Below the pieces are notes generated by a model that made no database searches, had not been told where the DNA came from, and was given only the letters and a program-made list of their open reading frames with translations. Shown one piece after another: positions 2,565 through 38,202 of a stretch of 40,230 nt of DNA. The DNA lies in the IMG/VR virus record IMGVR_UViG_3300023171_000004, positions 1-40,230 of that record; one strand, written 5' to 3'. The translations under genes were made by a program, and so were the position numbers. Origin of the DNA: a virus. Every line of letters starts with the position of its first letter. Position 1 is the first letter of the stretch.

Positions 2565-2628
2565 AACACAATAATACACCATATTTAATTATTTCCGTAT
2601 ATTGTAACGAATTTAATACATAAGATAA

Positions 2629-8990: not shown

Positions 8991-8994
8991 GAAT

Positions 8995-9675: not shown

Positions 9676-9722
9676 CCACATCGTTACACCTAACTAACAC
9701 CTACACTAACTATCTTTACGCT

Positions 9723-9947: not shown

Positions 9948-10153
9948 GCCTACAGTCACAATCCGACCTAACCAAACTAGGCAGGATATACCGGATGTTC
10001 GAAGTTATTGAACTAATGGAGTTCAATACCGATGAATGTAAAGATGTTCATGCTAAGTTAGTTCAGTCAATCAGTGAGGTAATTAAGCCCGAATTAGTAA
10101 AAACAGGAAATAAAATTAAGAACAATGGAAAACAACCAGATAACGCTATCTAA
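9944..10153 (+). CDS. Hypothetical protein
   Basis: 69-codon ORF with an ATGA overlap to the upstream gene. Confidence 0.5.
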   Translation: MSLQSQSDLTKLGRIYRMFEVIELMEFNTDECKDVHAKLVQSISEVIKPELVKTGNKIKNNGKQPDNAI

Positions 10154-10793: not shown

Positions 10794-11518
10794 TTGCAAG
10801 TAAATTCAAAATACGTGCATCTTCATGCCTTGATATAATGGCAGAAGGCAAAGGCGGTAAAATCTCTGCTGGTGCAATGACCTACTGTAAAAAATGGCTA
10901 AAGGAATACCTTTATAATCGCAGGAAAGACATTAAATCAAAATACATTGATAAGGGCAACAAAACCGAGGAAGATGGATTTACAATTATGGCAACCGAAT
11001 TAATTAAAGAGATGGTGTATAAAAACACTGAGCGTAAATCTAATGAATGGTGCGAGGGTGAATGCGATCTATTCCATAATAAAATAGTTTACGATAACAA
11101 GGCGTCATATGATTTGGATACATTCCCTATGTTTGAAATTGAAAATCCAGAGAAAAAATACTGGCAACAATTACAAGTATATGCCTGGTTATGGAATGCT
11201 GAATCAGCAGTTCTTTGCTATACGCTAAATGACGCTACACCAGATATGATTGAGGCAGCATTGAAATGGGTAGTGAATGAAGATGATGCGTATAAAATAG
11301 TTCAGGGGATGGTGTTTACCCAGGAAAACTTCGATAACTATCAAAGAGAATATTTCCCGCTATCAGAACTTGATACCTTCATTGAAATACCAGACGCTGA
11401 TCGTATTAAAAAATTTGATATTTCAGTTGATCTACATAACAGGGATAAAATCAAGAAGCACGTAGAACTTTGTAGAGAATATATTATTTCACTTATAAAA
11501 CAAAAATCAAATGGGTAA
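10775..11518 (+). CDS. PD-(D/E)XK exonuclease (YqaJ / lambda Exo-like recombination nuclease)
   Basis: GECDLF...IVYDNKAS gives a D..(D/E)xK arrangement, followed by a QLQVYAWLW (QxxxY) motif. It is paired with the annealing-protein candidate. Confidence 0.6.
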   Translation: MESAELIASKFKIRASSCLDIMAEGKGGKISAGAMTYCKKWLKEYLYNRRKDIKSKYIDKGNKTEEDGFTIMATELIKEMVYKNTERKSNEWCEGECDLFHNKIVYDNKASYDLDTFPMFEIENPEKKYWQQLQVYAWLWNAESAVLCYTLNDATPDMIEAALKWVVNEDDAYKIVQGMVFTQENFDNYQREYFPLSELDTFIEIPDADRIKKFDISVDLHNRDKIKKHVELCREYIISLIKQKSNG

Positions 11519-11876
11519 CATTTCAAGCAAGATAAATCTTGCCGCGTTAAAGAACGCTTCTATTTTAAAAATGGGTAAAAACAAAGATGTGGATTGTATA
11601 ATAATTCCTATTGTGCAAAACCATCTATTTAAGTCTGAAAAAGGGGCCGTATATCTTGACTTGCAAGGATTTGAACTAAAAACGAAGCGTGAAAATTCAA
11701 AAGATACTCACATGATAGTTCAGTCTTTGCCAAAAGAGGTAAGAGAAAAACAAACCGAAGAAGAGAAAAAACAAAATCCTATCATCGGTAATCATATTGT
11801 GTGGGATGAAGCAAACAATACTCAAACAGAACAATCTGCTATTACTGCAGCTACGGAGGATGATCTTCCATTCTAA
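11511..11876 (+). CDS. 121-aa protein with an SSB-type acidic C-terminal tip (EDDLPF)
   Basis: The C-terminus ...AATEDDLPF mimics the bacterial SSB tail DDDIPF. It is the third gene of the recombination module. I see no OB-fold motif. Confidence 0.5.
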   Translation: MGNISSKINLAALKNASILKMGKNKDVDCIIIPIVQNHLFKSEKGAVYLDLQGFELKTKRENSKDTHMIVQSLPKEVREKQTEEEKKQNPIIGNHIVWDEANNTQTEQSAITAATEDDLPF

Positions 11877-11911
11877 AACTTTAACGGGGGCGTAACTGCC
11901 CCTTTATTATT

Positions 11912-12388
11912 ATGAGAGTAGGAGATAAAAGATACAGAATTAACGGGTATGAACTGGAGGAACTGGAATATAGAGGGTCAAGGGTGAAGAACTTAATTTT
12001 CCACAACCAGAATAACGCGGAAGTAATATTAAGTAAGCATGTTTCCAACTTATTGAACTCCAGCAAAAGAATGGTAGTTTCAGAATTGGAAGAAAAACTA
12101 AGGATTAGTATAGGTAAAGTACATTCTATCATGCAGGAAATGAATATGAAGTTTGATCCAATAAACAAACCAGCGGTTGTATATGTGCCTTTAACTTACA
12201 AAAATAAATCAGTTCATAAATACGATGAAAAGGGATTTTACATTGAAAGCTACTCCTCTATACAGACAGCAGCAAGAGAAAACGGGGCAACATCCCCTAA
12301 GTCAACAATCATCGGTAGGGCCTGTAAAGACAGGTCAATAAAAGCATATGGCTTTAGATGGAGTTTAATTAAAAAAGATAGGATATGA
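11912..12388 (+). CDS. DNA-binding protein candidate (HTH plus NUMOD/IENR-like C-terminus, no nuclease motif)
   Basis: YDEKGFYIESYSSIQTAARENG...KAYGFRWS resembles the DNA-binding tails of homing endonucleases. The N-terminal half lacks GIY-YIG or HNH motifs. Confidence 0.45.
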   Translation: MRVGDKRYRINGYELEELEYRGSRVKNLIFHNQNNAEVILSKHVSNLLNSSKRMVVSELEEKLRISIGKVHSIMQEMNMKFDPINKPAVVYVPLTYKNKSVHKYDEKGFYIESYSSIQTAARENGATSPKSTIIGRACKDRSIKAYGFRWSLIKKDRI

Positions 12389-12609: not shown

Positions 12610-12785
12610 CAGAGCAAACCGCCTTCGACCGCTGGGCATCTGGTTTAGACTGGGGCAAGGAAGAAACGCTTATCGAACAGCGTGATAGGATATTGCGTGA
12701 GGTTCTTCCACATATATGGCAGAAACAACAGGAAAGTAGCAAGGATGTTACAAAAAGTGTCGGACAATTAACGTTATTTTGTTAG
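12606..12785 (+). CDS. 59-aa hypothetical protein
   Basis: Hand translation gives MTEQTAFDRWASGLDWGKEETLIEQRDRILREVLPHIWQKQQESSKDVTKSVGQLTLFC. ATGA overlap with the upstream gene. Confidence 0.4.
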   Translation: MTEQTAFDRWASGLDWGKEETLIEQRDRILREVLPHIWQKQQESSKDVTKSVGQLTLFC

Positions 12786-12805
12786 GAAGTTAAAAAAGAA
12801 GAAAA

Positions 12806-12946
12806 ATGATAGAGCAGCAAATAATAAATAAAGATTCAAGGGCATTAAGTAATGTGCCGACTATTGAGTATTATTTAGAAATAGGATGGCTAATTAAACA
12901 TATTGTCTATATTCAAGATCAACATATTGTTCAATACATAATTTAG
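12806..12946 (+). CDS. 46-aa micro-ORF in an AT-rich island
   Basis: Hand translation gives MIEQQIINKDSRALSNVPTIEYYLEIGWLIKHIVYIQDQHIVQYII. Confidence 0.3.
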   Translation: MIEQQIINKDSRALSNVPTIEYYLEIGWLIKHIVYIQDQHIVQYII

Positions 12947-12962
12947 AAAAAATATAAATAAT

Positions 12963-13094
12963 ATGATAAGATATCGAATAACATTTATACACGGAACATT
13001 TACTGAAATGATTGGATTTGATTTATTGTCAATAATTTCTGGCATGAGCGAATACAGGAGGAACCAAATTAAAACAATAGAAAAATTAAATTAA
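12963..13094 (+). CDS. 43-aa micro-ORF in an AT-rich island
   Basis: Hand translation gives MIRYRITFIHGTFTEMIGFDLLSIISGMSEYRRNQIKTIEKLN. Confidence 0.3.
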   Translation: MIRYRITFIHGTFTEMIGFDLLSIISGMSEYRRNQIKTIEKLN

Positions 13095-13095
13095 A

Positions 13096-13242
13096 ATGGA
13101 TAAGAAAGCTATGAATTTTTTGACGTATATAATAATTGGTACGTCTTTGTATTTTTGGAATACAAATTCCATTAGTACAGCAGAATTATTAATAATTCAA
13201 TCAATTAACCTACTAACTATAGCGTTTATAAATAAAAAATAA
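13096..13242 (+). CDS. 48-aa membrane micro-ORF in an AT-rich island
   Basis: Hand translation gives MDKKAMNFLTYIIIGTSLYFWNTNSISTAELLIIQSINLLTIAFINKK, with two hydrophobic stretches. Confidence 0.35.
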   Translation: MDKKAMNFLTYIIIGTSLYFWNTNSISTAELLIIQSINLLTIAFINKK

Positions 13243-13266
13243 CATGTAAATAAAAATATAATAAAT

Positions 13267-13461
13267 ATGGATTTAAAAAAAGAATGCTATTATCAAGAGC
13301 AAATTAATGATTCCTATCATTACGGACATTGTATTGACATTGATCATGCCATAATATTAGCAAAAGAATACGCAAACTATAAATTAGATTTAGTAGCAGA
13401 AGAAGCAGATTCTTATTATTTAGATAAAGATGCAGTCTTGAATTTTAAAGATGTTATTTAA
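13267..13461 (+). CDS. 64-aa hypothetical protein in an AT-rich island
   Basis: Track ORF. The motif KEYANYKLDLVAEEAD is shared with 4932..5141. Confidence 0.5.
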   Translation: MDLKKECYYQEQINDSYHYGHCIDIDHAIILAKEYANYKLDLVAEEADSYYLDKDAVLNFKDVI

Positions 13462-13654
13462 ATAACTTAAAATATAAGCACTAACTATTACATCAATATA
13501 ATATCCAAACTATTTTAGTATATTGCATCATCATTTAAACAGTTAAAGTAGTAGAGACCTTTAATTGTTGGGTTCACACCTTATCCAGCCTGATCGATCA
13601 CTACTCGACGGGCTTTTATTTTGAATTGTCAATTACAATATGTAAATTAGCATT

Positions 13655-13813
13655 ATGAAAAAAGAAATACTCATAGATCCTCAAAAGACATTTACTAAGT
13701 CTGAGTATCATAAAAAGTTTGGTGTTAATCGAGTCAAGATTGACCAAATGATAAAAGATAAAGACCTCGCAACTATACAAGTAAAAGGCACTACTTTAAT
13801 CATAATTAAATAA
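13655..13813 (+). CDS. 52-aa helix-turn-helix protein (excisionase/AlpA-like HTH_17 pattern)
   Basis: Hand translation gives MKKEILIDPQKTFTKSEYHKKFGVNRVKIDQMIKDKDLATIQVKGTTLIIIK. The ATG lies 4 nt after the box TAAATTAG (13643..13650), with TTG 19 nt upstream of the box. Confidence 0.55.
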   Translation: MKKEILIDPQKTFTKSEYHKKFGVNRVKIDQMIKDKDLATIQVKGTTLIIIK

Positions 13814-13843
13814 TTTTTAGGCACCAAAATTTTACAATTAGTA

Positions 13844-16091: not shown

Positions 16092-16304
16092 ATGAAAAGA
16101 ATAATAAATTGGATCGATGATCTACCAGAAGAATCACGGATAATGGCTAAAAGAAACATGGCTATAACACCTTATTGCAATCCGCTTGACATAGTCCCAT
16201 CATTACAATCTGCTTTGCTTAGAGCGTTTATATGGGGTGTTGGTCAAGGTGACTGTAAATACTGGAATGAAGTTTATCAAGGGAAAAATAATAGATTATT
16301 TTAA
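16092..16304 (+). CDS. Hypothetical 70-aa protein
   Basis: First ORF after the iteron region. No motif recognised. Confidence 0.55.
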   Translation: MKRIINWIDDLPEESRIMAKRNMAITPYCNPLDIVPSLQSALLRAFIWGVGQGDCKYWNEVYQGKNNRLF

Positions 16305-16305
16305 G

Positions 16306-16698
16306 ATGGAAACATTCAAGGTTATAGTTGCTGGAGGTAGAACTTTTAAAGATATGAGGTTGGCTTTTGAAGAATTGGATAGACTTCTTATCGATAAAGG
16401 AGAAACTGTAGAGATTGTTTCAGGTGGGCAATGTACTACTGACCCTAAAACAGGTAGAAAATATGGTGCTGATTATATCGGTGAAAAATATGCTACTACT
16501 TATAGACACTGTAAGCTAACTAAGTTTCCTGCTGATTGGAATACACATGGTAAGTCCGCAGGGCCAAAACGCAATAGACAAATGGCTGAATATGCTGATG
16601 CTTTAGTTGCTTTTTGGGATGGTAAAAGTCATGGCACTAAGAATATGATAGATTATGCAAAAGGAAAAGGTTTAAAAGTTAGAATAATCAGGTATTAG
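16306..16698 (+). CDS. SLOG-superfamily protein (DUF2493 / YspA-like)
   Basis: The start is trimmed to the ATG at 16306. KVIVAGGRTF...EIVSGGQ...GADYIGEKYA...FPADWNTHGKSAGPKRNRQM...ALVAFWDGKSHGTKNMIDYA matches the DUF2493 pattern. Confidence 0.7.
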   Translation: METFKVIVAGGRTFKDMRLAFEELDRLLIDKGETVEIVSGGQCTTDPKTGRKYGADYIGEKYATTYRHCKLTKFPADWNTHGKSAGPKRNRQMAEYADALVAFWDGKSHGTKNMIDYAKGKGLKVRIIRY

Positions 16699-24646: not shown

Positions 24647-24680
24647 AATCCTCTCGTTGTGAAACGGGGGGATTTTTTGT
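24647..24680 (+). terminator. Rho-independent terminator ending the head operon
   Basis: AATCCTCTCG (24647..24656) pairs with CGGGGGGATT (24665..24674): 10 bp including two G-U pairs, with an 8-nt loop, running into T6. Confidence 0.65.
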
Positions 24681-24874
24681 TATAGGTATAAATTATAAAT
24701 GTATAGAATATACATACCGCTAAAAGCGGTTACACATATATTTATTATAAAGGTTGTGTAAAGCCAATTTGGTTCCTTATTTGCGAAGTGCATAAAAAGA
24801 ATGAAATGAAAATAACCTCCGCATATTCCAGATAAAGGAAATAAAACCAGGCATATATTATATATTGTTTCCAT
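24680..24874 (-). CDS. Antisense cargo gene: 64-aa two-TM membrane protein
   Basis: The start is trimmed to the ATG at 24874 (METIYNICLVLFPLSGICGGYF...), 4 nt after the - strand box TATATTTG. The gene is AT-rich and opposite in polarity to the flanking virion genes. Confidence 0.5.
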   Translation of the reverse strand: METIYNICLVLFPLSGICGGYFHFILFMHFANKEPNWLYTTFIINICVTAFSGMYILYIYNLYL

Positions 24875-26413: not shown

Positions 26414-26650
26414 TTAATGCGGCTGGTATTGATTTGGGCCTCCAGTATCTTTTTGCACTACCTTTATTCCATCGTCAATTATTTCTAATTGGGAATGATC
26501 AATGTAAAGGGTTTCTCCTGCTTTATTGTCGATGCTTTTACCTGCAACACAATACTGTTTACATCCATTTAGATACTTTATTTCTGCGGTTGCAATTCCT
26601 TCGTATCCAGAAACAATGCATTTTACTTTGCTTCCTAGTCTTATATCCAT
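26414..26650 (-). CDS. Antisense cargo gene: 78-aa small beta-barrel-type phage protein
   Basis: The start is trimmed to the ATG at 26650. MDIRLGSKVKCIVSGYEGIATAEIKYLNGCKQYCV recalls a widespread small phage protein pattern (G.kVk..vtGf.G.v.....yl.GC.qy.V). Confidence 0.55.
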   Translation of the reverse strand: MDIRLGSKVKCIVSGYEGIATAEIKYLNGCKQYCVAGKSIDNKAGETLYIDHSQLEIIDDGIKVVQKDTGGPNQYQPH

Positions 26651-27362: not shown

Positions 27363-27563
27363 CTATTCAGTCGGATTTATTGTTATTCCAGTTGCAGTAT
27401 CTGTGATTTTTGTTTTAATATCGTAATAAAACAAAGTCCACAATTCTGAGCTATTCATTTTGTGATTATACGAAGTTGTTATTGATACGATTTGAATAGG
27501 AGTAATATTTTTATTAATCCAGTCTATCATACTCATTTTATTTAAAAACTCTTTCTCGTTCAT
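27363..27563 (-). CDS. Antisense cassette gene 3: 66-aa hypothetical protein
   Basis: Track ORF with a 4-nt overlap to the upstream gene. Confidence 0.5.
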   Translation of the reverse strand: MNEKEFLNKMSMIDWINKNITPIQIVSITTSYNHKMNSSELWTLFYYDIKTKITDTATGITINPTE

Positions 27564-27754
27564 ACTCTATACTTCTCTGGTAACGGTTTAACTTTTGGTT
27601 TCTCTTCTTTCCTATGTTCTACTGAACTATGCTGATTCTCTAACTGGAATACACGATCCTGTAAGTTTCGGATTTGTTTAAGATGTTCGCTTAGTGCTTT
27701 GCACATAATGAGTACAGCTAATAAGCTTACTAGTGCGCCGATTGTTGGTATCAT
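27560..27754 (-). CDS. Antisense cassette gene 2: 64-aa N-terminally anchored membrane protein with a coiled-coil, basic tail
   Basis: TM segment MIPTIGALVSLLAVLIMC, followed by LKQIRNLQDRVFQLENQ and KEEKPKVKPLPEKYRV. Confidence 0.55.
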   Translation of the reverse strand: MIPTIGALVSLLAVLIMCKALSEHLKQIRNLQDRVFQLENQHSSVEHRKEEKPKVKPLPEKYRV

Positions 27755-27758
27755 ATTA

Positions 27759-27947
27759 TTATTTATTTTTAAGCGTTAAATTAAAATCTTTAGGCAATTG
27801 AACTAGTTTTTCCTCTTTACTCATAGCGGCAACAAACGCATTAAGCATATCGCTTTGATTTGGTGTTAAACCTAATTGCACTATGTCTCCGTTATCTGTT
27901 TGCATTATCAATGCAACTTTGCCTTGTTCTAGTTCAGTGAATTTCAT
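27759..27947 (-). CDS. Antisense cassette gene 1: 62-aa hypothetical protein
   Basis: The start is trimmed to the ATG at 27947 (MKFTELEQGKVALIMQ...), 4 nt after the box TATGTTTG. Confidence 0.5.
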   Translation of the reverse strand: MKFTELEQGKVALIMQTDNGDIVQLGLTPNQSDMLNAFVAAMSKEEKLVQLPKDFNLTLKNK

Positions 27948-27951
27948 ACCC

Positions 27952-27959
27952 CAAACATA
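27952..27959 (-). promoter_or_regulatory. -7 box TATGTTTG (- strand), followed by GGGT then ATG
   Basis: The reverse complement of caaacata at 27952..27959. Confidence 0.45.
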
Positions 27960-28061
27960 CCTATTCCCAAAATAACTTTTTGCAACATTTCGGTTACGAA
28001 AATAACTATTGTATGTTTGTAACAATATTATTACCTTGCATGAACTTAAATAATATACAAA

Positions 28062-28520
28062 ATGACAAATTTACAAGGCACTGATTTTATTCTGGAAGTA
28101 GATACTACTACCGCCTTAACTGCTGATCGTGGAACGGACGCCAACTATCGCTTGATCGCGTGTCTTGTAACTAACGGCATCGAGATTTCTTTAGCGGAGC
28201 AATCCACTTCAAATAAGTGTGATGAGGGTTGGGGAACATCACTTTCCGGCATGGGTACATGGAGTTTCTCTGCTGACGGTCAAGCGGTATCGTTAGAATC
28301 TGGAGAAGCAGCAACTATGGCTAACTATCAAACATTGATCGATCTAGCCTTAGATAAGCAAATATTCTTTATGAGAATGACTGATTCGGGTAATACCGTA
28401 GTTAGAGAGGGTAAAGTAAGAATTTCAGCTTATTCTGAAACTGCACCTAACCAGGAGGCCTATTCATTTACAGCTACGTTTACAGGTATAGGCAAACCAT
28501 TTATCACTCCAGCAGTTTAA
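28062..28520 (+). CDS. Major tail (tube) protein
   Basis: 152 aa directly upstream of the chaperone/frameshift pair and the tape measure gene. It has a clear paralogue at 37669..38202. Confidence 0.8.
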   Translation: MTNLQGTDFILEVDTTTALTADRGTDANYRLIACLVTNGIEISLAEQSTSNKCDEGWGTSLSGMGTWSFSADGQAVSLESGEAATMANYQTLIDLALDKQIFFMRMTDSGNTVVREGKVRISAYSETAPNQEAYSFTATFTGIGKPFITPAV

Positions 28521-28896: not shown

Positions 28897-29237
28897 CTGA
28901 GTTTAATAAATTACAGGAGTTGGCCTACGGATGTATGGGGTTAAGTGTTGCTGAATTTGCCGCCTTAACCCCATTTCAGTTTGAATTAAAATGCAAGGGC
29001 TATGTTAGGGCTAGGGATGAGGAAGAATCGAACTTTAGGAGATTAGCCTATATCAACTTTGCAATGAGTGCCGATAAAAAGACTGCAGCTAAATATACCA
29101 TTGATGACATTTGGCCTACGAGGTCTGGAGCGGTAAAACAGAAGGAACAAAAAGGGCTTACTAAGAATAAGGTTAACAAGATGCTACAAGGCTGGATTAA
29201 AAGTAAAATAGAGAACAACGATGGACGGAATAATTAA
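28522..29237 (+). CDS. Tail assembly chaperone fusion (gpGT-like) made by a -1 frameshift at 28860..28866
   Basis: By hand translation the -1 frame is open from 28866 (GTT GGA AGG CCT...) through track ORF 28920..29237. The predicted fusion is about 238 aa. Confidence 0.65.
28860..28866 (+). other. Programmed -1 ribosomal frameshift heptamer A AAA AAG (within an A9 run at 28857..28865)
   Basis: In the zero frame the site reads TTA AAA AAA AAG, the same heptamer as E. coli dnaX. Confidence 0.65.
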
Positions 29238-31446
29238 TGTAGAGCTGACAGCGGGTGTCGGCGGTCTTGTTAGCGGGTTAAATCAGGGTCAAGCGGCTAC
29301 TCAAAGATTTTATAGAGAAGCAAATGCTGCTACTACCGGATTAGATCGCAGTTTCGCTTTGCTCAGTACTAACATTCAGCAGAATATTGGTGTAAGGGCT
29401 GTTCGGTCTATCAATACGGCCAGTAGCCAGATTACACGTGATTTAGCAAGGGCTGGAGCGAGTGCTGCAGCTATGGGGCAGGGCGTAAGGGTTGGGTCAA
29501 ATCAAGCGGCTTTTGCTTTGACTAACTTAGGCCGTGTTGCTCAGGATGCGCCCTTCGGTTTTATAGGCATTCAGAACAACCTTAATCCATTACTTGAGTC
29601 ATTCCAGCGTCTACGCGTAGAATCTGGCAGTAATGCTGCCGCTTTACGTGCATTGGGTCAATCACTAGTCGGCCCTGCTGGTATAGGTGTTGCGTTGTCT
29701 TTAATTACCGCCGCATTGACGTTTGCTCAAATGGGATTCCGTGCGTGGACTGGATCAGTTAAGTCGGCAAAGGAAGAAGCTAAAGAGTTTGTAGATACTT
29801 TAGAAGATGTGCAAAAGGCACAATTTAAGGGTATAGATTCAGCTCAAAAAGAATTGATTTCTTTACGGTCTCTATATTCCGTTGCAACAAATACTAATAT
29901 TTCACTTAAACAGCGTAAAGATGCAGTAGATGCTTTGCAACGTCAATACCCTGCTTACTTCAAAAACTTATCAGATGAGTCTATCTTAGTTGGTAAAGCA
30001 CAGCAACAGTACTATGATTTATCAAATCAAATACTCGCTACGGCACGAGCTAGGGCGGCGGAGGGTATTATAGCTAAGAACTCAACCAGACAGTTAGAGA
30101 ATGATGAAAAACTCCTTGAACTAAGAAAAAACCTAGCAGCCGCCGCAAATCAACAAGTATTAGCCGAAAAAAGACTAGAACAATCTAAATCTAACGTTGG
30201 CGATAGAGAAACGGCAGGTATAAGAGGTGAGGCAGCTGCAGCTCCATTGAGGTTTATCCAACTACAAAAGGAAATCCAAAAAGAGATAAATGGGTTATTA
30301 ACAGACACGAATCTATTAGAAGAAAGAAATCTTAGGCTGCGTGAGGAGGTCACTAAACAAGTAATAAAAGGTGCTGATTTAGCTGACTTACCTGCTGAGA
30401 AAGACAAAAGAGAAAAGAAAATAAAAACTTTGTCTGAGGTATTAAAAGAGTTGCAATTAGACTTAATTAAAACCGATGTACAATTAGGGGATACATTTTC
30501 TCAACGTGATACTAAAAAGGTAGATGCTTACCAAAAGGCGATCAATGAACTGATTGATTTGGGCTACAAACCAGAATCAGCAGCTATTCAGGAATTGATA
30601 AAGCAACAGGTTAGATTTAATCAGTTACGTGATAGTGGAGCATACCAAGAAAAGAAGCCAGACTTAGGCCCGCTTGGGGGGAGTTTAATAGGTAAGGCTG
30701 GGCAAGGCATTAAAAACCTTGCTGTTCGATTGCCAGAGGATTACAAAGCGATTCTTACCGCAACAGCTAAGTTTAATGCTGACTTTAATAGCCTAATCAG
30801 CGACGGATTTCTATCAACTGTTAGTGGTATAGGTGAATCAATAGGCGAAGCATTGGCGACTGGCGGCAATCTGATTGAAGCATTAGGGTCTAGCATCTTA
30901 GATGCGTTCGGTGGCTTCTTATCTGAGTTCGGGGACTTACTAATCAAATACGGGGCAGCCGCAGTTCTTAAAGGCAAACTGGATTTAGCCGTAGCGGTTC
31001 CAGGCGCTGGTATATTCGCAGGAGCAGCAGCAATAGCGGCGGGTATAGCCTTGAAAGTAGCCGCAGGGGCTATTAACGGATTCTCGTCTGGAAATAAGTC
31101 AGACAGCACACCAAAACGAACAGCATTCGCAAATGGAGGTGTAGTTTCTGGTCCTACCAATGCGCTTATAGGTGAATACGCTGGAGCAAGCAATAACCCC
31201 GAAGTCGTAGCGCCATTGGATAAGCTAAACGGCATGATTGCTAAGTCTATCAGATCAGCATTAGCGACTGGATTAGGAGCAATGAATAGCTACGCAGGAT
31301 CAGGTAGATCAATGCCAAATGGTGGTAACATCAGGGCTATGGGAGGGGATTTACAGCCAATAGTGTTTATAGCGGAAAACAAGATTGAGGGAGAAGCAAT
31401 AGTAACAGTTTATAGAAGGACATCAGAGAGGTTGGGGAGAACGTAA
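29221..31446 (+). CDS. Tail tape measure protein
   Basis: 741 aa, following the G/GT pair, with long helical Ala/Gln/Leu-rich stretches and Gly/Ala hydrophobic segments. Confidence 0.9.
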   Translation: MDGIINVELTAGVGGLVSGLNQGQAATQRFYREANAATTGLDRSFALLSTNIQQNIGVRAVRSINTASSQITRDLARAGASAAAMGQGVRVGSNQAAFALTNLGRVAQDAPFGFIGIQNNLNPLLESFQRLRVESGSNAAALRALGQSLVGPAGIGVALSLITAALTFAQMGFRAWTGSVKSAKEEAKEFVDTLEDVQKAQFKGIDSAQKELISLRSLYSVATNTNISLKQRKDAVDALQRQYPAYFKNLSDESILVGKAQQQYYDLSNQILATARARAAEGIIAKNSTRQLENDEKLLELRKNLAAAANQQVLAEKRLEQSKSNVGDRETAGIRGEAAAAPLRFIQLQKEIQKEINGLLTDTNLLEERNLRLREEVTKQVIKGADLADLPAEKDKREKKIKTLSEVLKELQLDLIKTDVQLGDTFSQRDTKKVDAYQKAINELIDLGYKPESAAIQELIKQQVRFNQLRDSGAYQEKKPDLGPLGGSLIGKAGQGIKNLAVRLPEDYKAILTATAKFNADFNSLISDGFLSTVSGIGESIGEALATGGNLIEALGSSILDAFGGFLSEFGDLLIKYGAAAVLKGKLDLAVAVPGAGIFAGAAAIAAGIALKVAAGAINGFSSGNKSDSTPKRTAFANGGVVSGPTNALIGEYAGASNNPEVVAPLDKLNGMIAKSIRSALATGLGAMNSYAGSGRSMPNGGNIRAMGGDLQPIVFIAENKIEGEAIVTVYRRTSERLGRT

Positions 31447-31489: not shown

Positions 31490-31762
31490 TTATTGTTCTT
31501 TCTCTGTTAGTTTTTCGAACGTTGTACCGTCTGAAAGCATAATATAGTAGTCTTTACCATTGAACAATGCAATAGACTTACTACCGCTTTCATGTAAAAT
31601 AATAGCGAATATTTTATCTCGCTCAGAACCAAAGTAAGGCTCTATTTTTAACAATTCTTCAAAATGTTCTGGTGACAGGCTCTTTAAAACGAGTTGATAA
31701 TGTTGGCCTAAAATGGTATTATCCCAAATACCACTAGTCATTAATTTTCTTAAAATAAACAT
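31490..31762 (-). CDS. Antisense cargo gene: 90-aa hypothetical protein
   Basis: Track ORF between the tape measure and distal tail genes. The box TAAATTTA (31769..31776) lies 6 nt upstream of the ATG. Confidence 0.55.
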   Translation of the reverse strand: MFILRKLMTSGIWDNTILGQHYQLVLKSLSPEHFEELLKIEPYFGSERDKIFAIILHESGSKSIALFNGKDYYIMLSDGTTFEKLTEKEQ

Positions 31763-31875: not shown

Positions 31876-34623
31876 ATGGCATTAATATTTGTTGACCGTA
31901 TCGAGTTTCCTTCACCAGACGTAAGTGGCGTTACTGAAATATATGAATTGTTCTTTAATAATATTTCCTTAGCGATCACGTACACTTATGAAGGTGCAAG
32001 CGGGCTAAGTTCATTAGATTCAACTCAACGCGGGCGCGCTGATAATAGCTTAATAACCCAGATCAACAACTCAACTGATACAAATAGCTATAAGATATAC
32101 GCCTCATTAATTTCGCCATTTGCTTATACAGGATCAGCAGAGGCACCACTTGATCCTCCGCCGCCTGATTGTGATTTGACATTAACTGTTAGTGTAACTG
32201 CAGAAACGGCTTTAGATGCTAATGACGGAACGGCTACGTTAGTTTCAAGTAGTTCGTTTCCACCGATACTATATTCTATTGGGAGTGGATATGTATCTGG
32301 CAATGTATTCACTGGACTAGCGCCAGGAAGTTATAACGGTTACGCCTTAGATGACAACGGATGCACACAAGCCAAATTGTTTAACATCCCAGCGTTCGAT
32401 ACTCCAACGGATGAAAGCCTAATATTCATAGATCACTTTGAGTTCCCATCGCCGGACTTTGCTGGAGTGAATGAGGTTTACGATATTTACCTAGATCCGA
32501 CTACTGATGAATTTGAAGTTGTGTATTCTGGTTCTTCGAGCTTATCCAGCGTTGATGAGTTGCAACGTGGCAGAATAAGCGGGTCACTGATAGGTAATTT
32601 TGATAACCCAGATGGAACGGTAAGGTATGTGATCAATGCAAGTCTAAACAGCCCATTTGCTGTTATTGCTGAAACAATCATTATTGATGATCCTAATCCG
32701 CCAAATGCAGAGTTTGAATACCAGCAATGGTATGGCGGAGATTTATGTGATGATTACGGAAATACAACGGAATGCCAGATTTACCGCCGTGTTCGTGAGG
32801 GGAGTATAGCGCCGTCTTTAAGACCAATTCAATTCTCAGGAGACAACCCGATAGTGATTGAATACCCAGACTCAGGAGAATATAAAATGAACCAGATTAA
32901 CGGCTCTGGCATTACATTAAACTTAGTGGCTTATGAAGGATTTGAGTTAGCCGACTTATACGCAACAGATGAAGCGGAATGGTGGGTAATACTGCAAGGT
33001 TACTATAACCATCAGGCATTTATCATTCCTGACAACTGCTACGAGCCTTATCAAAGCAAGCCTTATCCGATCACCATTAGATGTACTGACAGGATAGGGA
33101 TGCTTACAGATGTGCCGTTTCAGAATACTTCCGGCAGACCGTTTAAAGGCTTTGAAAATGACATCCGAATAGTTGCGACAATACTTAACAAAACCGGCTT
33201 ACAATTACCGATTGGCGTTGCCTGTAATACCTATGAGGAAAATATGGATACCTCGGATAGTCCTATTGAGCAAACGTTTATTAACCGCGAGGCATTTGTT
33301 GATGATAAGGATATACCGTTAACTTGTAAAGAGGTTTTAGAATCGATACTAAATAGGTATTCGGCCAGACTTCATCAATGGAACGGCAAATGGCAGATTG
33401 TGAATGTGCTGGAAAAATCTAGGGGGAATGTAACTATTTGGAACTTCAATGATATTGGCGAACCAGATGGCGGGAGTTCTGCTTTGGGTAGCCTAATGAC
33501 AGTAGGAGAACAGTATCGTGATATCATTCCTACCGAAGCGGGACAGAGGATTATTAAGGGTATTGCTTCATCTATGTCATACTATAAATACGGGTATCCA
33601 TCCAGTGAAGTTGAAAACGGAGACTTTGACGATTGGGATGTTTTAGACGCGGTGCCAGAAGGTTGGGAGATTATAGGAAGCATGTCCGTTGTTCGGGTTG
33701 AACGTATTGGCGAAGATGGTCCGACAGGTGACTTCTATCCAAAGATTGTAGCGAACACCGTACCTAGTTCGTTCTTACGCAACATTACGGGCATCCAGGT
33801 TCAGGGCGGTCAAAGGGTACAGATCAGTTTTGAAATGTTTGCTCCAGATGCAGCGGCTTATTTCTTAGATAATACACCAATCTATTTAGGCGTTCAGGTA
33901 TTAGATGTTACCAATTCTGAATACTATAACCCGTTCGGATGGACTGCGACACCTGTAACCTATGATATTATGTATCATCGTGGGGACTTTGAAAACCAGA
34001 TTACTGTTACGTTCAGCGTTGATCCTAAAGAAGATGATTGGGATTTAAAGATAGGACTTAGAATGCTTAATGTAAGCGCCGGCGATCAGTTCATAACCAG
34101 CTTCAATAATGTCAAGGTGTCTCCTGTATCTACACCACAAGCTGAACCAGCGATAGGCGTATTTACAAGACAAACCTCTCGATCATTTCAGACTTATCGT
34201 CGTGGCCCGATAGTGATATTACATGGTGATGAGACTAATTCAGAGCGTACCTCGCAGATCAGCATTGGTTCGGCTACTGTGATTACGCCTCCTACTACAT
34301 GGAGTAGAGCGGGTTTGACGGAAACTAAGACCTTATTACAAGTTATTGCTAATTCAGAGCTAAGGCAACACCAGAAACCATACATGGTGTTTGAAGCGTT
34401 GTATGTTCGTAACTATGGGTATTTTGGCGCTACGGTTGACATTAACACTTTGCTCACTATTGACAGGCTTGTAGGCGCTTATTTATTCCTGTCTGGTACG
34501 TTCAATATTAAAACAGGTAAGCACCGTTTACGCCATGCACAGGTGTATGTAGATGACGCAGTGTTTTATGAAGAAGGCAATGTTTTGGATTATGGCGCGG
34601 TTGACTTGAGTGGGAGTAAATAA
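31876..34623 (+). CDS. Large distal tail / baseplate protein with an N-terminal internal duplication and an SprB-type repeat
   Basis: 915 aa, first + strand gene after the tape measure. Residues 3-84 and 182-263 are repeats (LIFVDRIEFPSPD.../LIFIDHFEFPSPD...). Residues 98-164 (CDLTL...NDGTATL...FTGLAPGSYNGYALDDNGC) resemble SprB repeats. The ATG lies 4 nt after the box TATATTTA. Confidence 0.75.
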   Translation: MALIFVDRIEFPSPDVSGVTEIYELFFNNISLAITYTYEGASGLSSLDSTQRGRADNSLITQINNSTDTNSYKIYASLISPFAYTGSAEAPLDPPPPDCDLTLTVSVTAETALDANDGTATLVSSSSFPPILYSIGSGYVSGNVFTGLAPGSYNGYALDDNGCTQAKLFNIPAFDTPTDESLIFIDHFEFPSPDFAGVNEVYDIYLDPTTDEFEVVYSGSSSLSSVDELQRGRISGSLIGNFDNPDGTVRYVINASLNSPFAVIAETIIIDDPNPPNAEFEYQQWYGGDLCDDYGNTTECQIYRRVREGSIAPSLRPIQFSGDNPIVIEYPDSGEYKMNQINGSGITLNLVAYEGFELADLYATDEAEWWVILQGYYNHQAFIIPDNCYEPYQSKPYPITIRCTDRIGMLTDVPFQNTSGRPFKGFENDIRIVATILNKTGLQLPIGVACNTYEENMDTSDSPIEQTFINREAFVDDKDIPLTCKEVLESILNRYSARLHQWNGKWQIVNVLEKSRGNVTIWNFNDIGEPDGGSSALGSLMTVGEQYRDIIPTEAGQRIIKGIASSMSYYKYGYPSSEVENGDFDDWDVLDAVPEGWEIIGSMSVVRVERIGEDGPTGDFYPKIVANTVPSSFLRNITGIQVQGGQRVQISFEMFAPDAAAYFLDNTPIYLGVQVLDVTNSEYYNPFGWTATPVTYDIMYHRGDFENQITVTFSVDPKEDDWDLKIGLRMLNVSAGDQFITSFNNVKVSPVSTPQAEPAIGVFTRQTSRSFQTYRRGPIVILHGDETNSERTSQISIGSATVITPPTTWSRAGLTETKTLLQVIANSELRQHQKPYMVFEALYVRNYGYFGATVDINTLLTIDRLVGAYLFLSGTFNIKTGKHRLRHAQVYVDDAVFYEEGNVLDYGAVDLSGSK

Positions 34624-34750
34624 AAAAGCCCAATCGGTTAAGAGTAGACTTCCGATCAGCGACACGCCAATCCCCTATTAAGCATATTATTTGATGCTAC
34701 CACCTAGCGTTATTGCCTTATGGATTTTGTCTTTATATTTTTTCTGGCTA

Positions 34751-35125
34751 TTACTTTTTATACCATTCAATGAATTTAATTACCGCTTCGTAAACCATGT
34801 CTATTTTGCTATTATTATACTGAGCAGTACAATGGGCTGTTATATCGTCTCCGAGTAATATAGAGCAACATTTATAACTAATCAATACAGGAAACCCTAA
34901 AGACTATATTTCCTCAACTACAGGCATCAACTCGTTCCAATCCTTATCGTAATTTAAATTGAGTTTACTTAGGCGCTTTTTATGATCATACACTATGCAA
35001 TCTGTCCAACATTGTGCAGTCCCGCTATTGAAAACAAAAGACGTATCTTTTTCTTCAAATCGCTCTGTATATCCCATGAATAGTGCTATCGATCTATTTT
35101 TCACCTTTAACCTCCAATTCTTCAT
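34751..35125 (-). pseudogene. Small gene interrupted by an in-frame TAG (34904..34906); upstream part is 34904..35125 (or start at 35077), with a same-frame open continuation 34751..34903
   Basis: Hand translation gives ...DKDWNELMPVVEEI * SLGFPVLISYKCCSILLGDDITAHCTAQYNNSKIDMVYEAVIKFIEWYKK *. That is 50 further sense codons in the same frame in AT-rich DNA. Confidence 0.4.
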
Positions 35126-35486
35126 TCATTAAAGCAAAATACAGATTTTGTAATTGATGGACATAGACTATATGAGGTAATGGATACCATTTAAACATAA
35201 ATCCGTTAGTTGAAGTATAAGAGAATCTACCGCGATGAAAATATAACTTAGGATCGTAACGATATGAATTTATCTCAAATCCTAACCTACGAAGCCATTC
35301 TTCTGTTATAGTTATCCCGGATATGTCATCATTCAATATATTGTAATGAAAAGTTTTTATAATTTTTCCATGCAAAACAAGAGAGCGTGAAATATCCACG
35401 AAACTGTTATCTATTTTTTCTATGGTTACCTCACCTAATAGTTTTTCATTTACCAAATTACCTAATCTTAGTTCTTTTTTGTTCAT
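35094..35486 (-). CDS. Island protein, paralogue 2 (130 aa)
   Basis: Shares ELRLGNLV, ITEEWLRRLGF and IVYVHQLQNLYFALMNEELEV with 35483..35815. Confidence 0.6.
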   Translation of the reverse strand: MNKKELRLGNLVNEKLLGEVTIEKIDNSFVDISRSLVLHGKIIKTFHYNILNDDISGITITEEWLRRLGFEINSYRYDPKLYFHRGRFSYTSTNGFMFKWYPLPHIVYVHQLQNLYFALMNEELEVKGEK

Positions 35487-35815
35487 ATCACTAGTTCCCT
35501 TCCAGTTATAGCGAAGTAAATATTTTGTAATTGGTGTACATATAATATAGGGCTACTTAGCTTAATACCCTCCCCAGCTGAATAAAATAATCCCTCCTTC
35601 CAATATTCAAAACAACAGCCATCATGCGACCATTCTGATCCATCATTTCTAAATCCGAAATATTTTAACCATTGTTCTGTCAGCCGAACTCCTACACAAT
35701 AATCTGTATCATCCCAATCTTCTAGCTCTTCAATATCGTGGCCGCTTGCTATTCTGTATTCTCCCTTATCTTTTAGGCTTACTATGTTGCCTATACGTAG
35801 TTCAGACGCTTTCAT
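35483..35815 (-). CDS. Island protein, paralogue 1 (110 aa)
   Basis: ELRIGNIV, LTEQWLKYFGF and ILYVHQLQNIYFAITGRELV. 4-nt overlap with paralogue 2. Confidence 0.6.
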   Translation of the reverse strand: MKASELRIGNIVSLKDKGEYRIASGHDIEELEDWDDTDYCVGVRLTEQWLKYFGFRNDGSEWSHDGCCFEYWKEGLFYSAGEGIKLSSPILYVHQLQNIYFAITGRELVI

Positions 35816-35816
35816 A

Positions 35817-35969
35817 CTACCAACTCCCTAAACAAGTAACCGAATTAATTGAATCTTCACTTATTCTGTATTTTTGACAAGCAATCTGTATCGCTTGAGC
35901 TACACTCATAGCTGGAACTTCTGCTGATGAGCTATCCCAATTCCCCCACTTAACTTCGTATTTTTTCAT
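35817..35969 (-). CDS. 50-aa micro-protein
   Basis: Hand translation gives MKKYEVKWGNWDSSSAEVPAMSVAQAIQIACQKYRISEDSINSVTCLGSW. The stop is 1 nt before the next ATG. Confidence 0.4.
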   Translation of the reverse strand: MKKYEVKWGNWDSSSAEVPAMSVAQAIQIACQKYRISEDSINSVTCLGSW

Positions 35970-35985
35970 GTCTTATACTTTAGTT

Positions 35986-36210
35986 TTAAATTGTAAATAA
36001 ATGGCCTACTTGTTCGTTATATGACTTCTTCCACTCTAAATAACCTAAATGAATAGCTCTATTCATTTCCCAATCTATAGATATCCTTTTTATATCGCTT
36101 TGAGGACATAATCTTCGGGGACTATTTTTTGATTCTACCCAGCATTTAGTTATTGGGTCTAGCTTAGAAAGTATATTTTTTCTTCTCTTTTTATGAGACT
36201 TAGTTTTCAT
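35986..36210 (-). CDS. Basic 74-aa protein
   Basis: Track ORF with the N-terminus MKTKSHKKRRKN. Confidence 0.5.
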   Translation of the reverse strand: MKTKSHKKRRKNILSKLDPITKCWVESKNSPRRLCPQSDIKRISIDWEMNRAIHLGYLEWKKSYNEQVGHLFTI

Positions 36211-36358
36211 GTTGTTTTATTTTATGGTGTAAGAATATTATAGTTGCAATAAGAATACATATATACCAATTATCAAATTCGCATGGCTCAATAAACACAA
36301 TAACACCCCTTAAAAAGAATAATATTGACAAGCAATAATCTAAAGGCTCTAATTTCAT
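36200..36358 (-). CDS. 52-aa two-TM micro-protein
   Basis: Hand translation gives MKLEPLDYCLSILFFLRGVIVFIEPCEFDNWYICILIATIIFLHHKIKQHEN. ATGA overlap upstream and an 11-nt overlap downstream. Confidence 0.4.
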   Translation of the reverse strand: MKLEPLDYCLSILFFLRGVIVFIEPCEFDNWYICILIATIIFLHHKIKQHEN

Positions 36359-36573
36359 CTTATAATGATTGGTTTGTTTAAAATCTGACTTCTTATGCTA
36401 CTACCTATATCTCCTGAGATATTAAAGTTATCTGCTAAGTCGGCTAGAGTTTCATAAGCTATCTGATGCGCGAATCTTTTCATGGCTTCTTCTGCTACTG
36501 CAAACTCTTTTTCAGTAAGCCAAACTTTTTCCTGATCTAAAATGGTTTGTAATGTTTGTTTTGCTGTTTTCAT
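36355..36573 (-). CDS. 72-aa helical hypothetical protein
   Basis: Track ORF, 2 nt after the upstream gene. Confidence 0.55.
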   Translation of the reverse strand: MKTAKQTLQTILDQEKVWLTEKEFAVAEEAMKRFAHQIAYETLADLADNFNISGDIGSSIRSQILNKPIIIR

Positions 36574-36575
36574 AA

Positions 36576-37028
36576 CTACAAACTTTTTAAATGATCATCC
36601 ATTTCTTTACGCCAAGAGTTATGCGGTTCATTACGAAAAGCTACAAACCACGCGCAACTAATGGTAATGAATAATAAACAGCTTTTATATATCTTATAAA
36701 ATATTGTCTCGTAGCATTTACTATCTTCCCATACATCAATAAATGAAGTTATTATTAGTATAGACCCTGCAATTATAAATCCCATAGACCATAACCCATT
36801 TATGAAGTCCATAGTATCCGATCTCTCTTTTGGTCTGTTTTCTTTTATACGCATAAGATTGTGCAAGTCTTTTCTCAGTATAGGCTCAAGTTCTTTTTCA
36901 GACATTTGTTTTCCAAACGCACAATACGTGATTATGAACGCGTGATTGTTACGTTCAAATCTTACTTTGTATTGTAGTGATTCGTTATAATCTGTTTTTT
37001 CTACTGATAGTATTTCGAAGTGTTTCAT
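36576..37028 (-). CDS. 150-aa membrane protein (soluble N-domain plus two TM segments)
   Basis: The TM candidates are FINGLWSMGFIIAGSILIITSFI and IYKSCLLFITISCAWFVAF. Confidence 0.6.
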   Translation of the reverse strand: MKHFEILSVEKTDYNESLQYKVRFERNNHAFIITYCAFGKQMSEKELEPILRKDLHNLMRIKENRPKERSDTMDFINGLWSMGFIIAGSILIITSFIDVWEDSKCYETIFYKIYKSCLLFITISCAWFVAFRNEPHNSWRKEMDDHLKSL

Positions 37029-37082
37029 AACTCAAATATAACCATATACTCAATACAGTTTTGTACCGTTGTTGTTACAATT

Positions 37083-37114
37083 AAAAAAGGGTACGCCCAC
37101 CACACACGTACCCC
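37083..37114 (-). terminator. Rho-independent terminator after 37134..37571
   Basis: GGGTACG (37089..37095) pairs with CGTACCC (37107..37113). The A6 run at 37083..37088 gives T6 on the - strand. Confidence 0.6.
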
Positions 37115-37133
37115 GACAACCAAACAAACCAAG

Positions 37134-37571
37134 TTAAATGTAGGTATTTAATATATACTGCCAAATATCTATTTTGAGATGGTAAGCGTTAAGTATAGAA
37201 AATCCGCTAACTAATAATCCCACAATAGCGCCTATTGACATTTTGACAACTTGTAATGGGAAAAAACTTTTTGTAATATTATTCAATAATCCTGAAAAAA
37301 CCATAAATAATAAATAACCCACGAATAAAGGCCATTGAAAAGTAAATAAACCCATTAAAAGCCACAAAAACAAAGGTATCATATAGACCAACTTTGTTTG
37401 AAGGTCTTTCCGTAAATCTTCTGGCCAATCTTCATATTTGATAGGTTTAAGTTTTTTTGTTCTTTTCTGTAAGTCTAAATAAGCTCTAGTTTTTTCTACT
37501 GGGTTTATAATCCACAATAATTCGTAAGCCATAAACATTAGGCCGATAAAGTAATAAATAGCTTTAAGCAT
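37134..37571 (-). CDS. 145-aa four-TM membrane protein (own transcription unit)
   Basis: The start is trimmed to the ATG at 37571 (MLKAIYYFIGLMFMAYELLWI...). The box TATATTTG lies at 37597..37604 and a terminator lies downstream. Confidence 0.6.
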   Translation of the reverse strand: MLKAIYYFIGLMFMAYELLWIINPVEKTRAYLDLQKRTKKLKPIKYEDWPEDLRKDLQTKLVYMIPLFLWLLMGLFTFQWPLFVGYLLFMVFSGLLNNITKSFFPLQVVKMSIGAIVGLLVSGFSILNAYHLKIDIWQYILNTYI

Positions 37572-37596
37572 GTTGTTAGTTATTTTTAAATGTCCC

Positions 37597-37604
37597 CAAA
37601 TATA
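37597..37604 (-). promoter_or_regulatory. -7 box TATATTTG (- strand), followed by GGGG
   Basis: The reverse complement of caaatata at 37597..37604, 25 nt upstream of the ATG at 37571. Confidence 0.4.
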
Positions 37605-37668
37605 CCAATCTATCAAATACACTTATGTAACATTACTAATACATTACAATTTTCATTATATTTACCAC

Positions 37669-38202
37669 ATGAACGGCACTAGCTACATCATACTTATCGA
37701 TACCACCACCCCCAGAACAGCAGAACGCGGTACAGAGGCTAATTACCGACCCGTAGTCTGCGGTGTTACTAACGGGTTTAATATGTCATTTGAAGCCATA
37801 TCTTTACGCAACAAATGTGATGGTGGCTGGGATAATACCGAATCTGGTTACGGTTCATGGGGGCTTAACTTAGATGGGCAGGCCATAGCATTACGTAACG
37901 TAGAGAAGCTGATCAAAGCCAACTACGATGAGGTGGCTAATCTGGCGGTAAAGAAACGGGTGTTCTGGGCTAAGATGGGGGACTTAGATAACAAAAGGGT
38001 TATCGAGGGATTGGTTAGGATCGGTTCTTATAGCGAAACAGCAGATTTAGAAGAACCTTATACGTTTACAGTTGAGTTTGTGGGATTAGGTGAGCCGATA
38101 ATTGAAGAGAATGCGTTTATACTAGTGTTAGGAGCTAACGAAGCCAGAACAGAAATACTAGGTGATGGAATAGGAAATTTAATAGCAGATAAATATGATT
38201 GA
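37669..38202 (+). CDS. Tail tube protein paralogue with a C-terminal extension (distal-tail / adaptor candidate), first gene of the fibre operon
   Basis: The start is trimmed to the ATG at 37669, 4 nt after the box TATATTTA (37657..37664). The product aligns along its length with 28062..28520 (for example RNKCDGGWDNTESGYGSWGLNLDGQAI against SNKCDEGWGTSLSGMGTWSFSADGQAV). Confidence 0.75.
   Translation: MNGTSYIILIDTTTPRTAERGTEANYRPVVCGVTNGFNMSFEAISLRNKCDGGWDNTESGYGSWGLNLDGQAIALRNVEKLIKANYDEVANLAVKKRVFWAKMGDLDNKRVIEGLVRIGSYSETADLEEPYTFTVEFVGLGEPIIEENAFILVLGANEARTEILGDGIGNLIADKYD

Follow-up and report, generated by a model that had tools for sequence, protein, structure and literature searches.

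We analysed a window of 40,230 nucleotides (positions 1 to 40,230 of IMG/VR virus record IMGVR_UViG_3300023171_000004) and in particular a compact island of minus-strand genes that lies inside its tail module. The window, which encodes TerL, a portal protein and a major capsid protein, is an essentially complete, circularly permuted siphophage genome of ∼40.1 kb, and its proteins recur on a 40,133-bp Logan contig and on a 40,244-bp contig. Among isolates, Flavobacterium phage 11b and Cellulophaga phages come closest, with protein identities of 24–32%, which makes a host from the Flavobacteriia probable.

The island extends from 34751 to 37571 and is 96% coding, so that a compact minus-strand block, which an original prediction had placed here from the letters of the DNA, is borne out almost to the base. 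Ten open reading frames (ORFs) are present, but they represent nine genes rather than the predicted ten, since g9 and g10 are one gene split by a TAG codon (see below). The block is indeed located between the gene of a 915-aa protein and an operon encoding a paralogue of the tail-tube protein and a fibre-like protein; the label "distal tail protein" given to the 915-aa product, however, finds no confirmation, as this product has no Pfam match and all PHROGs that it matches are unnamed. With a GC content of 32.4%, the island differs from the 915-aa gene (42.2%), the tape-measure gene (43.4%) and the gene of the tube paralogue (41.5%), and the GC skew flips its sign at 35–37 kb. The positions of all features are listed in the table.

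The gene g1 forms a unit of its own and is separated from g2 by a spacer of 105 bp, which holds the putative g1 terminator and the putative g2 promoter. The remaining genes make up unit 2, with intergenic gaps of, in order, +2, −4 (ATGA), −11, +16, +1, −4 (ATGA), −11 and +18 bp. These spacings are typical of translational coupling and, with two ATGA junctions, agree with the coupled chain that had been proposed. Hydropathy profiles show four transmembrane (TM) segments in g1, and two C-terminal TM segments that follow a soluble domain of ∼70 aa in g2, both as anticipated. For g4, which had been described as a two-TM protein, the first segment is clear and the second is short; two segments are thus plausible but marginal. 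The predicted basic character of g5 is evident from its isoelectric point (pI). A nucleotide search of the island DNA against 50,697 phage records gave zero matches, and Rfam has no match between 34.0 and 38.5 kb at E ≤ 1. No credible target-site duplications or terminal inverted repeats were found at the island edges, and a 16-nt repeat of 81% identity (34777 and 37740) is probably due to chance.

Table. Island genes, putative boundary elements, neighbouring genes and features of related loci (aa, amino acids; positions refer to the sequence in the first column)
Sequence	Feature	Positions	Strand	Description
Window	g1	37134..37571	-	145 aa from ATG, ORF reaches GTG at 37622; 4 TM; single-gene unit
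Window	g2	36576..37028	-	150 aa; first gene of unit 2
Window	g3	36355..36573	-	72 aa, acidic
Window	g4	36200..36358	-	52 aa, small hydrophobic, 1–2 TM
Window	g5	35986..36210	-	74 aa, basic, pI 10.1
Window	g6	35817..35969	-	50 aa
Window	g7	35483..35815	-	110 aa; diverged phrog_10066 member
Window	g8	35094..35486	-	130 aa; phrog_10066 member
Window	g9	34904..35104/35125	-	GTG start with upstream GGAGG (34904..35104)
Window	g10	34751..34885	-	in frame with g9 past TAG
Window	Unit 1 promoter-like block	37597..37630	-	TTACATAA-N18-TATATTTG; 25 nt before g1 ATG; box at 37604..37597
Window	Unit 1 intrinsic terminator (predicted)	37083..37114	-	GGGGTACG...CGTACCC, then T6; −14.7 kcal/mol, z −1.8
Window	Unit 2 promoter-like block	37033..37066	-	GTACAAAA-N18-TATATTTG; box (at 37040) ends 4 nt before g2 ATG
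Window	Terminator closing the island (predicted)	~34620..34655	-	hairpin + T6 in minimum-free-energy fold; T-run overlaps TAA of 915-aa gene
Window	39-nt non-coding 3' block	34697..34735	-	95% identical to L007 4122..4160; upstream of closing terminator, in the island 3' untranslated region
Window	Restart promoter-like box	37657..37671	+	TATATTTA-CCAC-ATG; back-to-back, would serve tube-paralogue/fibre operon
Window	YopX gene	2187..2582	-	lone gene
Window	Endolysin gene	3725..4174		Peptidase_M15_4; own 4-TM, 1-TM and 2-TM neighbour proteins
Window	Antisense unit	24680..24874	-	2 TM
Window	Antisense unit	26414..26650	-
Window	Antisense unit	27363..28025	-	three genes, one with a TM segment
Window	Major tail protein gene	28062..28520
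Window	Tape-measure gene	29221..31446		GC 43.4%
Window	Antisense gene	31490..31762	-
Window	915-aa protein gene	31876..34623	+	post-tape-measure; GC 42.2%
Window	Tail-tube paralogue gene	37669..38202	+	47% identical to major tail protein; GC 41.5%
L024	Gap cargo	9296..9817	antisense	HNH/NUMOD4 homing endonuclease
L020	Cargo after 915-aa homologue	8586..9143	antisense	RNA-ligase-like gene

To find related loci, we scanned IMG/VR with an alignment of the tube protein and obtained 33. The tail synteny is kept across them, with the major tail protein, two genes in the chaperone position, the tape-measure protein, the 915-aa homologue and the tube paralogue. In the 26 loci that have both flanking genes (the window, 11b and phage phi10:1 included), we measured how far behind the stop codon of the 915-aa homologue the next tube-like gene starts. 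This gap is at most 47 bp in 22 loci, 11b and phi10:1 among them, and exceeds that length in only four: the window (2946 bp), L017 (534 bp), L024 (622 bp) and L028 (2.2 kb). Three of the four open gaps contain antisense cargo. In L017 it consists of a 37-aa TM peptide and a 64-aa ORF, and in L024 of a homing endonuclease gene; the genes in the gap of L028 are portal-like and Mu-F-like, which suggests a rearrangement or a chimera. A further locus, L020, carries an antisense gene after its 915-aa homologue and is without a hit for the tube paralogue.

Judged by synteny, the slot is normally closed and, when open, is usually filled with unrelated antisense cargo, and the island is shown to be an insertion. 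Since L024 and L020 carry antisense genes right after the 915-aa homologue, the comparison also shows the junction to be a recurrent landing site for mobile cargo. A look at synteny for variable cargo in this slot had been suggested by the original prediction, which favoured a moron-type module; the accessory-cargo part of that reading is upheld by a slot that 22 of 26 loci keep closed and whose content otherwise differs, by promoter and terminator motifs of the island's own and by its deviant GC content.

The position within the tail module, from the post-tape-measure protein to the tube-paralogue/fibre operon, might instead point to tail or baseplate assembly factors or to minor virion proteins. 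We rejected this explanation, which is extremely unlikely, since it is contradicted by synteny. The genes are absent at this position in 22 of the 26 loci, they are encoded on the opposite strand with a deviant GC content, and their homologues are found in the early regions of other phages. In addition, the homologues of both flanking genes are directly adjacent in phi10:1 and are proteomically confirmed structural proteins there.

Each of the two units has a TAnnTTTG box in front and a hairpin with a T-run behind, so that the proposed division into two transcription units stands at the level of sequence motifs; the box of unit 1 and its 7-bp hairpin followed by six T residues are both present as noted, the hairpin at exactly the stated positions. 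TAnnTTTG, which we take to be the Bacteroidetes −7 promoter consensus, agrees with a host from the Flavobacteriia. The composite motif [GT]TACAnAA-N16-20-TAnnTTTG occurs three times in the window, compared with 0.07 expected from shuffled sequences, and all three copies are located directly upstream of antisense membrane-protein genes (g1, g2 and the unit that begins at 24874). The block common to these three is [GT]TACAnAA-N18-TATATTTG, and a near-copy, GTTGCAAAA-N18-TATGTTTG, precedes the ATG at 27947. The distance from the end of the box to the ATG is exactly 4 nt for g2, 24874 and 27947, which suggests leaderless mRNAs. The arrangement TAnnTTT[GA]-N4-ATG is found 12 times in the window; 2.3 ± 1.5 copies are expected, and the maximum in 200 first-order Markov simulations is 7.

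The structural module is less uniform in strand than had been thought when all virion genes were placed on the plus strand, and five further antisense units are situated at 24.7–31.8 kb. Together with a lone YopX gene, these units have GC contents of 28–36% and a TAnnTTTG box no more than 50 nt upstream of each, and two of them encode small TM proteins. Because of these five mini-units and the YopX gene, the 2.9-kb island is the largest of a series of antisense inserts in the window. All late genes that follow antisense inserts open with TAnnTTTA-N4-ATG (boxes at 24922, 26720, 31864 and 37657; starts at 24934, 26732, 31876 and 37669). This suggests leaderless restart promoters, which would split the structural module into several operons; in phage 11b the two tail genes abut and leave no space for a restart box. 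We infer that each insert brings a back-to-back pair of promoters, one for the cargo and one that restarts the late genes. Four antisense boxes end in TTTG, as in the host consensus, and the four restart boxes end in TTTA, a difference that is a hint, not proof, of different timing.

We compared the island with loci that carry its relatives. The closest relative of g1 (P0124, 75% identity) is found on L012, a 3.1-kb contig from a close phage relative whose tape-measure protein and 915-aa N-terminus are 70–85% identical to those of the window. There, the g1 homologue is antisense and lies between the tape-measure and 915-aa genes, a slot that holds a different antisense gene in the window. For g2, a search of 5.8 billion proteins gave one homologue only (P0122, 56% identity). 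In siphophage L007, P0122 heads an antisense cassette of four genes that is flanked by a tail-completion gene and the gene of the major tail protein; P0122 is immediately followed by a member of phrog_10066, the family of g7 and g8. L007 contains a second antisense cassette with another phrog_10066 member, and in L030 a sense-oriented phrog_10066 gene is placed between the tape-measure gene and the 915-aa homologue. Among the ∼50 loci fetched, g3–g6 have no relatives, and a tblastn search of the phage collection, which was made for g5 only, gave nothing but spurious hits.

The regulatory blocks accompany these genes. The g2 promoter block is kept upstream of the g2 homologue in L007 and the g1 block is kept with the g1 homologue in L012, while L017 has promoter-proximal sequence in common with the island, shares the promoter-distal part of the g1 block and carries a different cargo. 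At the other end, the island shares the 39-nt 3' block and the terminator loop CTACTCTTAACCG with the L007 cassette, although the cassette proteins are only ∼56% identical. Searches with 20- to 27-mers of the 39-nt block recovered the L007 phage and no other sequence from the viral, genome and metagenome collections. The candidates for its role are a recombination patch, an RNA stability element and a binding site. We rejected a plus-strand ORF that overlaps the block (34694..34858), because its counterpart in L007 lacks a start codon and is similar for 13 codons only.

These comparisons show the island to be a mosaic of cassettes and not one system. The view of the island as a single undescribed system is thereby lost: g1 moves alone, g2 and a phrog_10066 gene form another cassette in L007, and one gene is broken by a stop codon.

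A separate observation concerns L004, a prophage of Elizabethkingia miricola (MAHK01000014.1). It has an antisense block of nine genes at 9107..12215, located in the head module between the portal-side and the scaffold/capsid genes. At least one of these genes (114 aa) is a phrog_10066 member; a second ORF of 114 aa was not confirmed as such. The block thus has the same architecture in a temperate phage from another genus of the Flavobacteriia.

None of the island products matches a characterised family in Pfam, PHROGs or PADLOC, and the only PHROG matched is phrog_10066, by g7 and g8. The earlier statement that no product can be assigned to a described family is therefore a little too strong, given phrog_10066 and a g1 family of at least 416 clusters, but it is correct in that no family is characterised. 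A sequence search of the PDB with the g7/g8 and g1 family profiles gave nothing real; hits to PPK2 derive from one fused sequence in the alignment.

The tandem paralogues g7 and g8, which had been recognised as such, are 31% identical (E 8e-14), and both match the profile of phrog_10066 (E 9.4e-15 and 1.5e-20, respectively; profile positions 1–135 of 136). The family has at least 356 homologues, every one of them unnamed, with invariant positions R7, G9, T61-E62 and W64 (TEEW), H110-Q-L-Q-N114 (HQLQN) and E123-L124. The AlphaFold2 model of g8 (predicted local distance difference test, pLDDT, 84) consists of an N-terminal SH3/Tudor-like barrel and a C-terminal domain of β-sheet and helix that carries the invariant HQLQN motif. 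Foldseek, one of the checks proposed earlier, was run for g8 and g1 and found no analogue in the PDB for either. The matches of g8 are weak and generic (SH3/Tudor/KOW barrels, E ≥ 0.18), and those in BFVD are uncharacterised phage proteins only. Like the members in Cellulophaga and Flavobacterium phages, g7 and g8 align over the full profile and keep R7, G9, TEEW and HQLQN. The family is usually encoded in early small-gene trains, which start from divergent control regions or lie near DNA polymerase or replication genes and often include YopX; here, by contrast, two diverged tandem copies are found antisense in a tail module.

The g1 family seemed tiny in a word-indexed search, but a profile search raised it to at least 416 cluster representatives, of which 139 reach E ≤ 1e-10 and nearly all are 140–150 aa in length. 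GLFTFQW and N-x-YHL-x-ID are its conserved motifs. The AlphaFold2 model of g1 is very confident (pLDDT 96.3; predicted template modelling score, pTM, 0.86), with a best E of 1.9 in the Foldseek search of the PDB. A comparison of 80 family members with Pfam and NCBIfam showed no consistent family (Colicin_V in 3/80, holin_3 in 1/80). Relatives of g1 (P0125, P0126, P0135) are co-directional with RecT, methylases and DUF5131, adjoin DNA polymerase A and Thy1, or, in a prophage, lie between AAA_24 and a primase-helicase.

Small multi-TM proteins resemble holins, and the single holin_3 match, although weak (E 1.4e-4), might be taken to mean that g1, g2 and g4 form an accessory holin, antiholin or lysis-timing device. 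This is very unlikely, and we rejected a role in lysis because the M15 endolysin is encoded elsewhere, 7 kb away in the circular genome, with TM neighbours of its own. Besides, g1 relatives occur in replication rather than lysis modules, holin_3 is matched by one family member in 80, and the island products match no holin family in Pfam or PHROGs.

The interruption of a gene by TAG, which had been noted before, is real. Residues 3–117 of the fused g9 and g10 product align, across the TAG, with gp74, which is uninterrupted in Flavobacterium "elemo" podophages (E 1e-6), and on this alignment g9 and g10 are readily seen as one ancestral gene of ∼117 aa that is cut by the in-frame TAG at 34904..34906. 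The g9–10 homologue is located in a train of small genes upstream of Erf and an exonuclease. TAG also serves as the stop codon of g2, g6 and g8 at coupled gene junctions. Since TAG is an ordinary stop elsewhere, only one gene is interrupted and a scan of the window gave zero tRNA genes, we rejected recoding and read g9/g10 as nonsense-disrupted.

This disruption, the low GC content and the lack of relatives of g3–g6 in the searches performed (that of the phage collection being for g5 only) would fit hitch-hiker DNA that arrived by illegitimate recombination, is mostly decaying and is no longer selected. We consider such wholesale decay improbable in a stretch that is 96% coding with ATGA-type coupling. 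The ORFs of g1, g2, g7 and g8 are intact and conserved, with residues that are invariant across hundreds of homologues, and the promoter and terminator blocks are conserved as well.

All island families with relatives (g1, g7/g8 and g9–10) are normally found in other Bacteroidota phages within trains of early or replication genes, and because the homologues are small early-region genes elsewhere, the cargo of the island would be of an early type. The explanation that we favour as probable is a patchwork in which two or more cassettes of accessory genes of this type, similar to morons or PeSL cassettes, lie antisense in a tail junction that is normally closed. They would have entered between the 915-aa gene and the tube paralogue, each starting at a Bacteroidetes-type promoter ([GT]TACAnAA-N18-TATATTTG) and ending at an intrinsic terminator. 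As the distal terminator abuts the stop codon of the 915-aa gene, it should keep antisense transcription out of that gene, and the plus-strand box TATATTTA-N4-ATG would restart transcription of the tube-paralogue/fibre operon. Unmodified host RNA polymerase would transcribe the cassettes early and independently of the late operon. The host would then be the target of the products, of which three are predicted inner-membrane proteins and the rest small and soluble. The cassettes would be dispensable for virion assembly, and the nonsense TAG in g9–10 argues that the cargo is dispensable. By analogy with the PeSL cassettes of T4-like phages, the conserved promoter and terminator blocks may be the sites at which phages recombine and exchange the cassettes.

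Several points weigh against this explanation. The island products are all uncharacterised, and g3–g6 have no homologues, so that their coding status rests on their tight packing. Promoters and terminators are called from motifs, and the overall number of single TAnnTTTG boxes (29) hardly exceeds the expected one (20 ± 4.5). The early timing is derived from the positions of homologues in other phages and from the TTTG/TTTA difference in eight boxes; the late plus-strand genes use a closely similar box, and the class of promoter may not separate expression times. The recombination mechanism is deduced from only three comparisons (L007, L012 and L017).

A more specific version of the patchwork would be shuffling of the PeSL kind, a mechanism so far undescribed for Flavobacteriia siphophages of this lineage. 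Antisense units with conserved blocks, that is, a bidirectional leaderless-type promoter and a terminator/3' untranslated region, would hop among tail slots and carry small inner-membrane proteins (the g1 family, g2, g4 and others), of which at least one may be a new entry-blocking or host-takeover effector. We hold this version to be unlikely.

The membrane proteins also raise the question of whether the island is a coordinated system in which g1, g2, g4 and soluble partners exclude competing phages or neutralise host defence. A precedent is gene 15 of HK97, a moron in the tail operon whose small inner-membrane product gp15 excludes superinfecting phages (PMC3594210). The antisense units are skewed towards membrane proteins, and g2 occurs together with a phrog_10066 gene in two phages. 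Nevertheless, the components are not co-inherited, as g1 is found alone elsewhere and g3–g6 are unique to this phage among the loci fetched, and one gene is inactivated by a stop codon. No island product matches known superinfection-exclusion or defence proteins in PADLOC, Pfam or PHROGs; homology to proteins of the gp15, SieA, Imm and Sie2009 types was likewise not detected in these databases, and the g1 model has no PDB analogue. No domains of an integrase, recombinase or repressor are present in the ORFs scanned, and no unassigned ORF exceeds 300 aa. With neither an integrase nor a repressor found, the classical form of exclusion, expressed from a prophage, becomes less likely. We thus regard a coordinated system as rather unlikely. 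An anti-defence or host-takeover function is possible for the island, but nothing found here points to a new functional system or to a new system of defence or counter-defence.

The cassettes that we favour can be compared with two known kinds of element. As in lambdoid morons such as HK97 gene 15, extra DNA is present between late genes that are adjacent in relatives (PMC3594210), here 2946 bp instead of at most 47 bp. The island also resembles morons in its putative promoters and terminators (boxes at 37604 and 37040; terminators at 37083..37114 and ∼34620..34655), in a GC content unlike that of its neighbours (32.4% compared with 41.5–43.4%) and in its location in a tail operon, where the first products are predicted to be small inner-membrane proteins. 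Whereas a moron is a single gene, however, the island contains nine genes in two units, antisense to the late operon and with a putative restart promoter. The expression from a repressed prophage that defines morons is unlikely here, as no lysogeny genes were found. Neither in sequence nor in fold does the island resemble gp15 or another characterised moron product.

In T4-like phages, PeSL cassettes are mobile regulatory cassettes of a promoter and a stem-loop that occur with ORFans (PMC2839356). Similar to these, conserved composite promoter and terminator blocks surround cargo that is rich in ORFans and apparently early in type, and the differences between close relatives may map to those blocks, here in three comparisons (L007, L012 and L017). 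The putative island promoters follow the Bacteroidetes-type consensus TAnnTTTG and not the σ70 type of PeSL, their motif is present in 3–4 copies per genome compared with ∼50 for PeSL, and the cassettes are inside the structural module and antisense to it.

In the surroundings of the island, the tube paralogue is followed by genes for a 138-aa protein and for an 813-aa SGNH/GDSL fibre-like protein, the latter of which continues from the end of the window to its start. In the 915-aa protein, the N-terminus (31876..32720) contains a domain of ∼100 aa in tandem duplicate, LIFVDRIEFPSPDVSGVTEIYELFF... and LIFIDHFEFPSPDFAGVNEVYDIYL..., and distant homologues, which align from residue ∼250–340 on, are without this duplicated domain. 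A search of IMG/VR with the 915-aa protein and of JGI metagenomes with its two-sequence alignment gave no relatives. Elsewhere in the window, 12610..13843 is an ORF-poor stretch of 1.2 kb with 28% GC and weak repeats only, a candidate replication origin or control region. The 153-aa protein encoded at 16237..16698 has matches to PF10686, the YspA/cpYpsA-related SLOG family (E 1.2e-11), and to DUF7768. Domains of the SLOG type are associated with nucleotide-signal or defence-related systems.

Morons and ORFan cassettes bounded by a promoter and a terminator are well known, and the island is an unusually large example from a siphophage lineage of the Flavobacteriia. The details that deserve attention are the antisense orientation with putative paired restart promoters, the leaderless-type spacing and the hyper-conserved 3' block. 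If the proposed mechanism is correct, the tail module of this lineage would be a row of short operons separated by self-insulated antisense cassettes and not one late operon. It would also illustrate, for phages other than the enterobacterial models, how ORFans can be inserted as cargo while the expression of virion genes is spared. The g1 family, with its four TM segments and a confidently predicted fold without a solved analogue, and phrog_10066 are candidates for functional screens.

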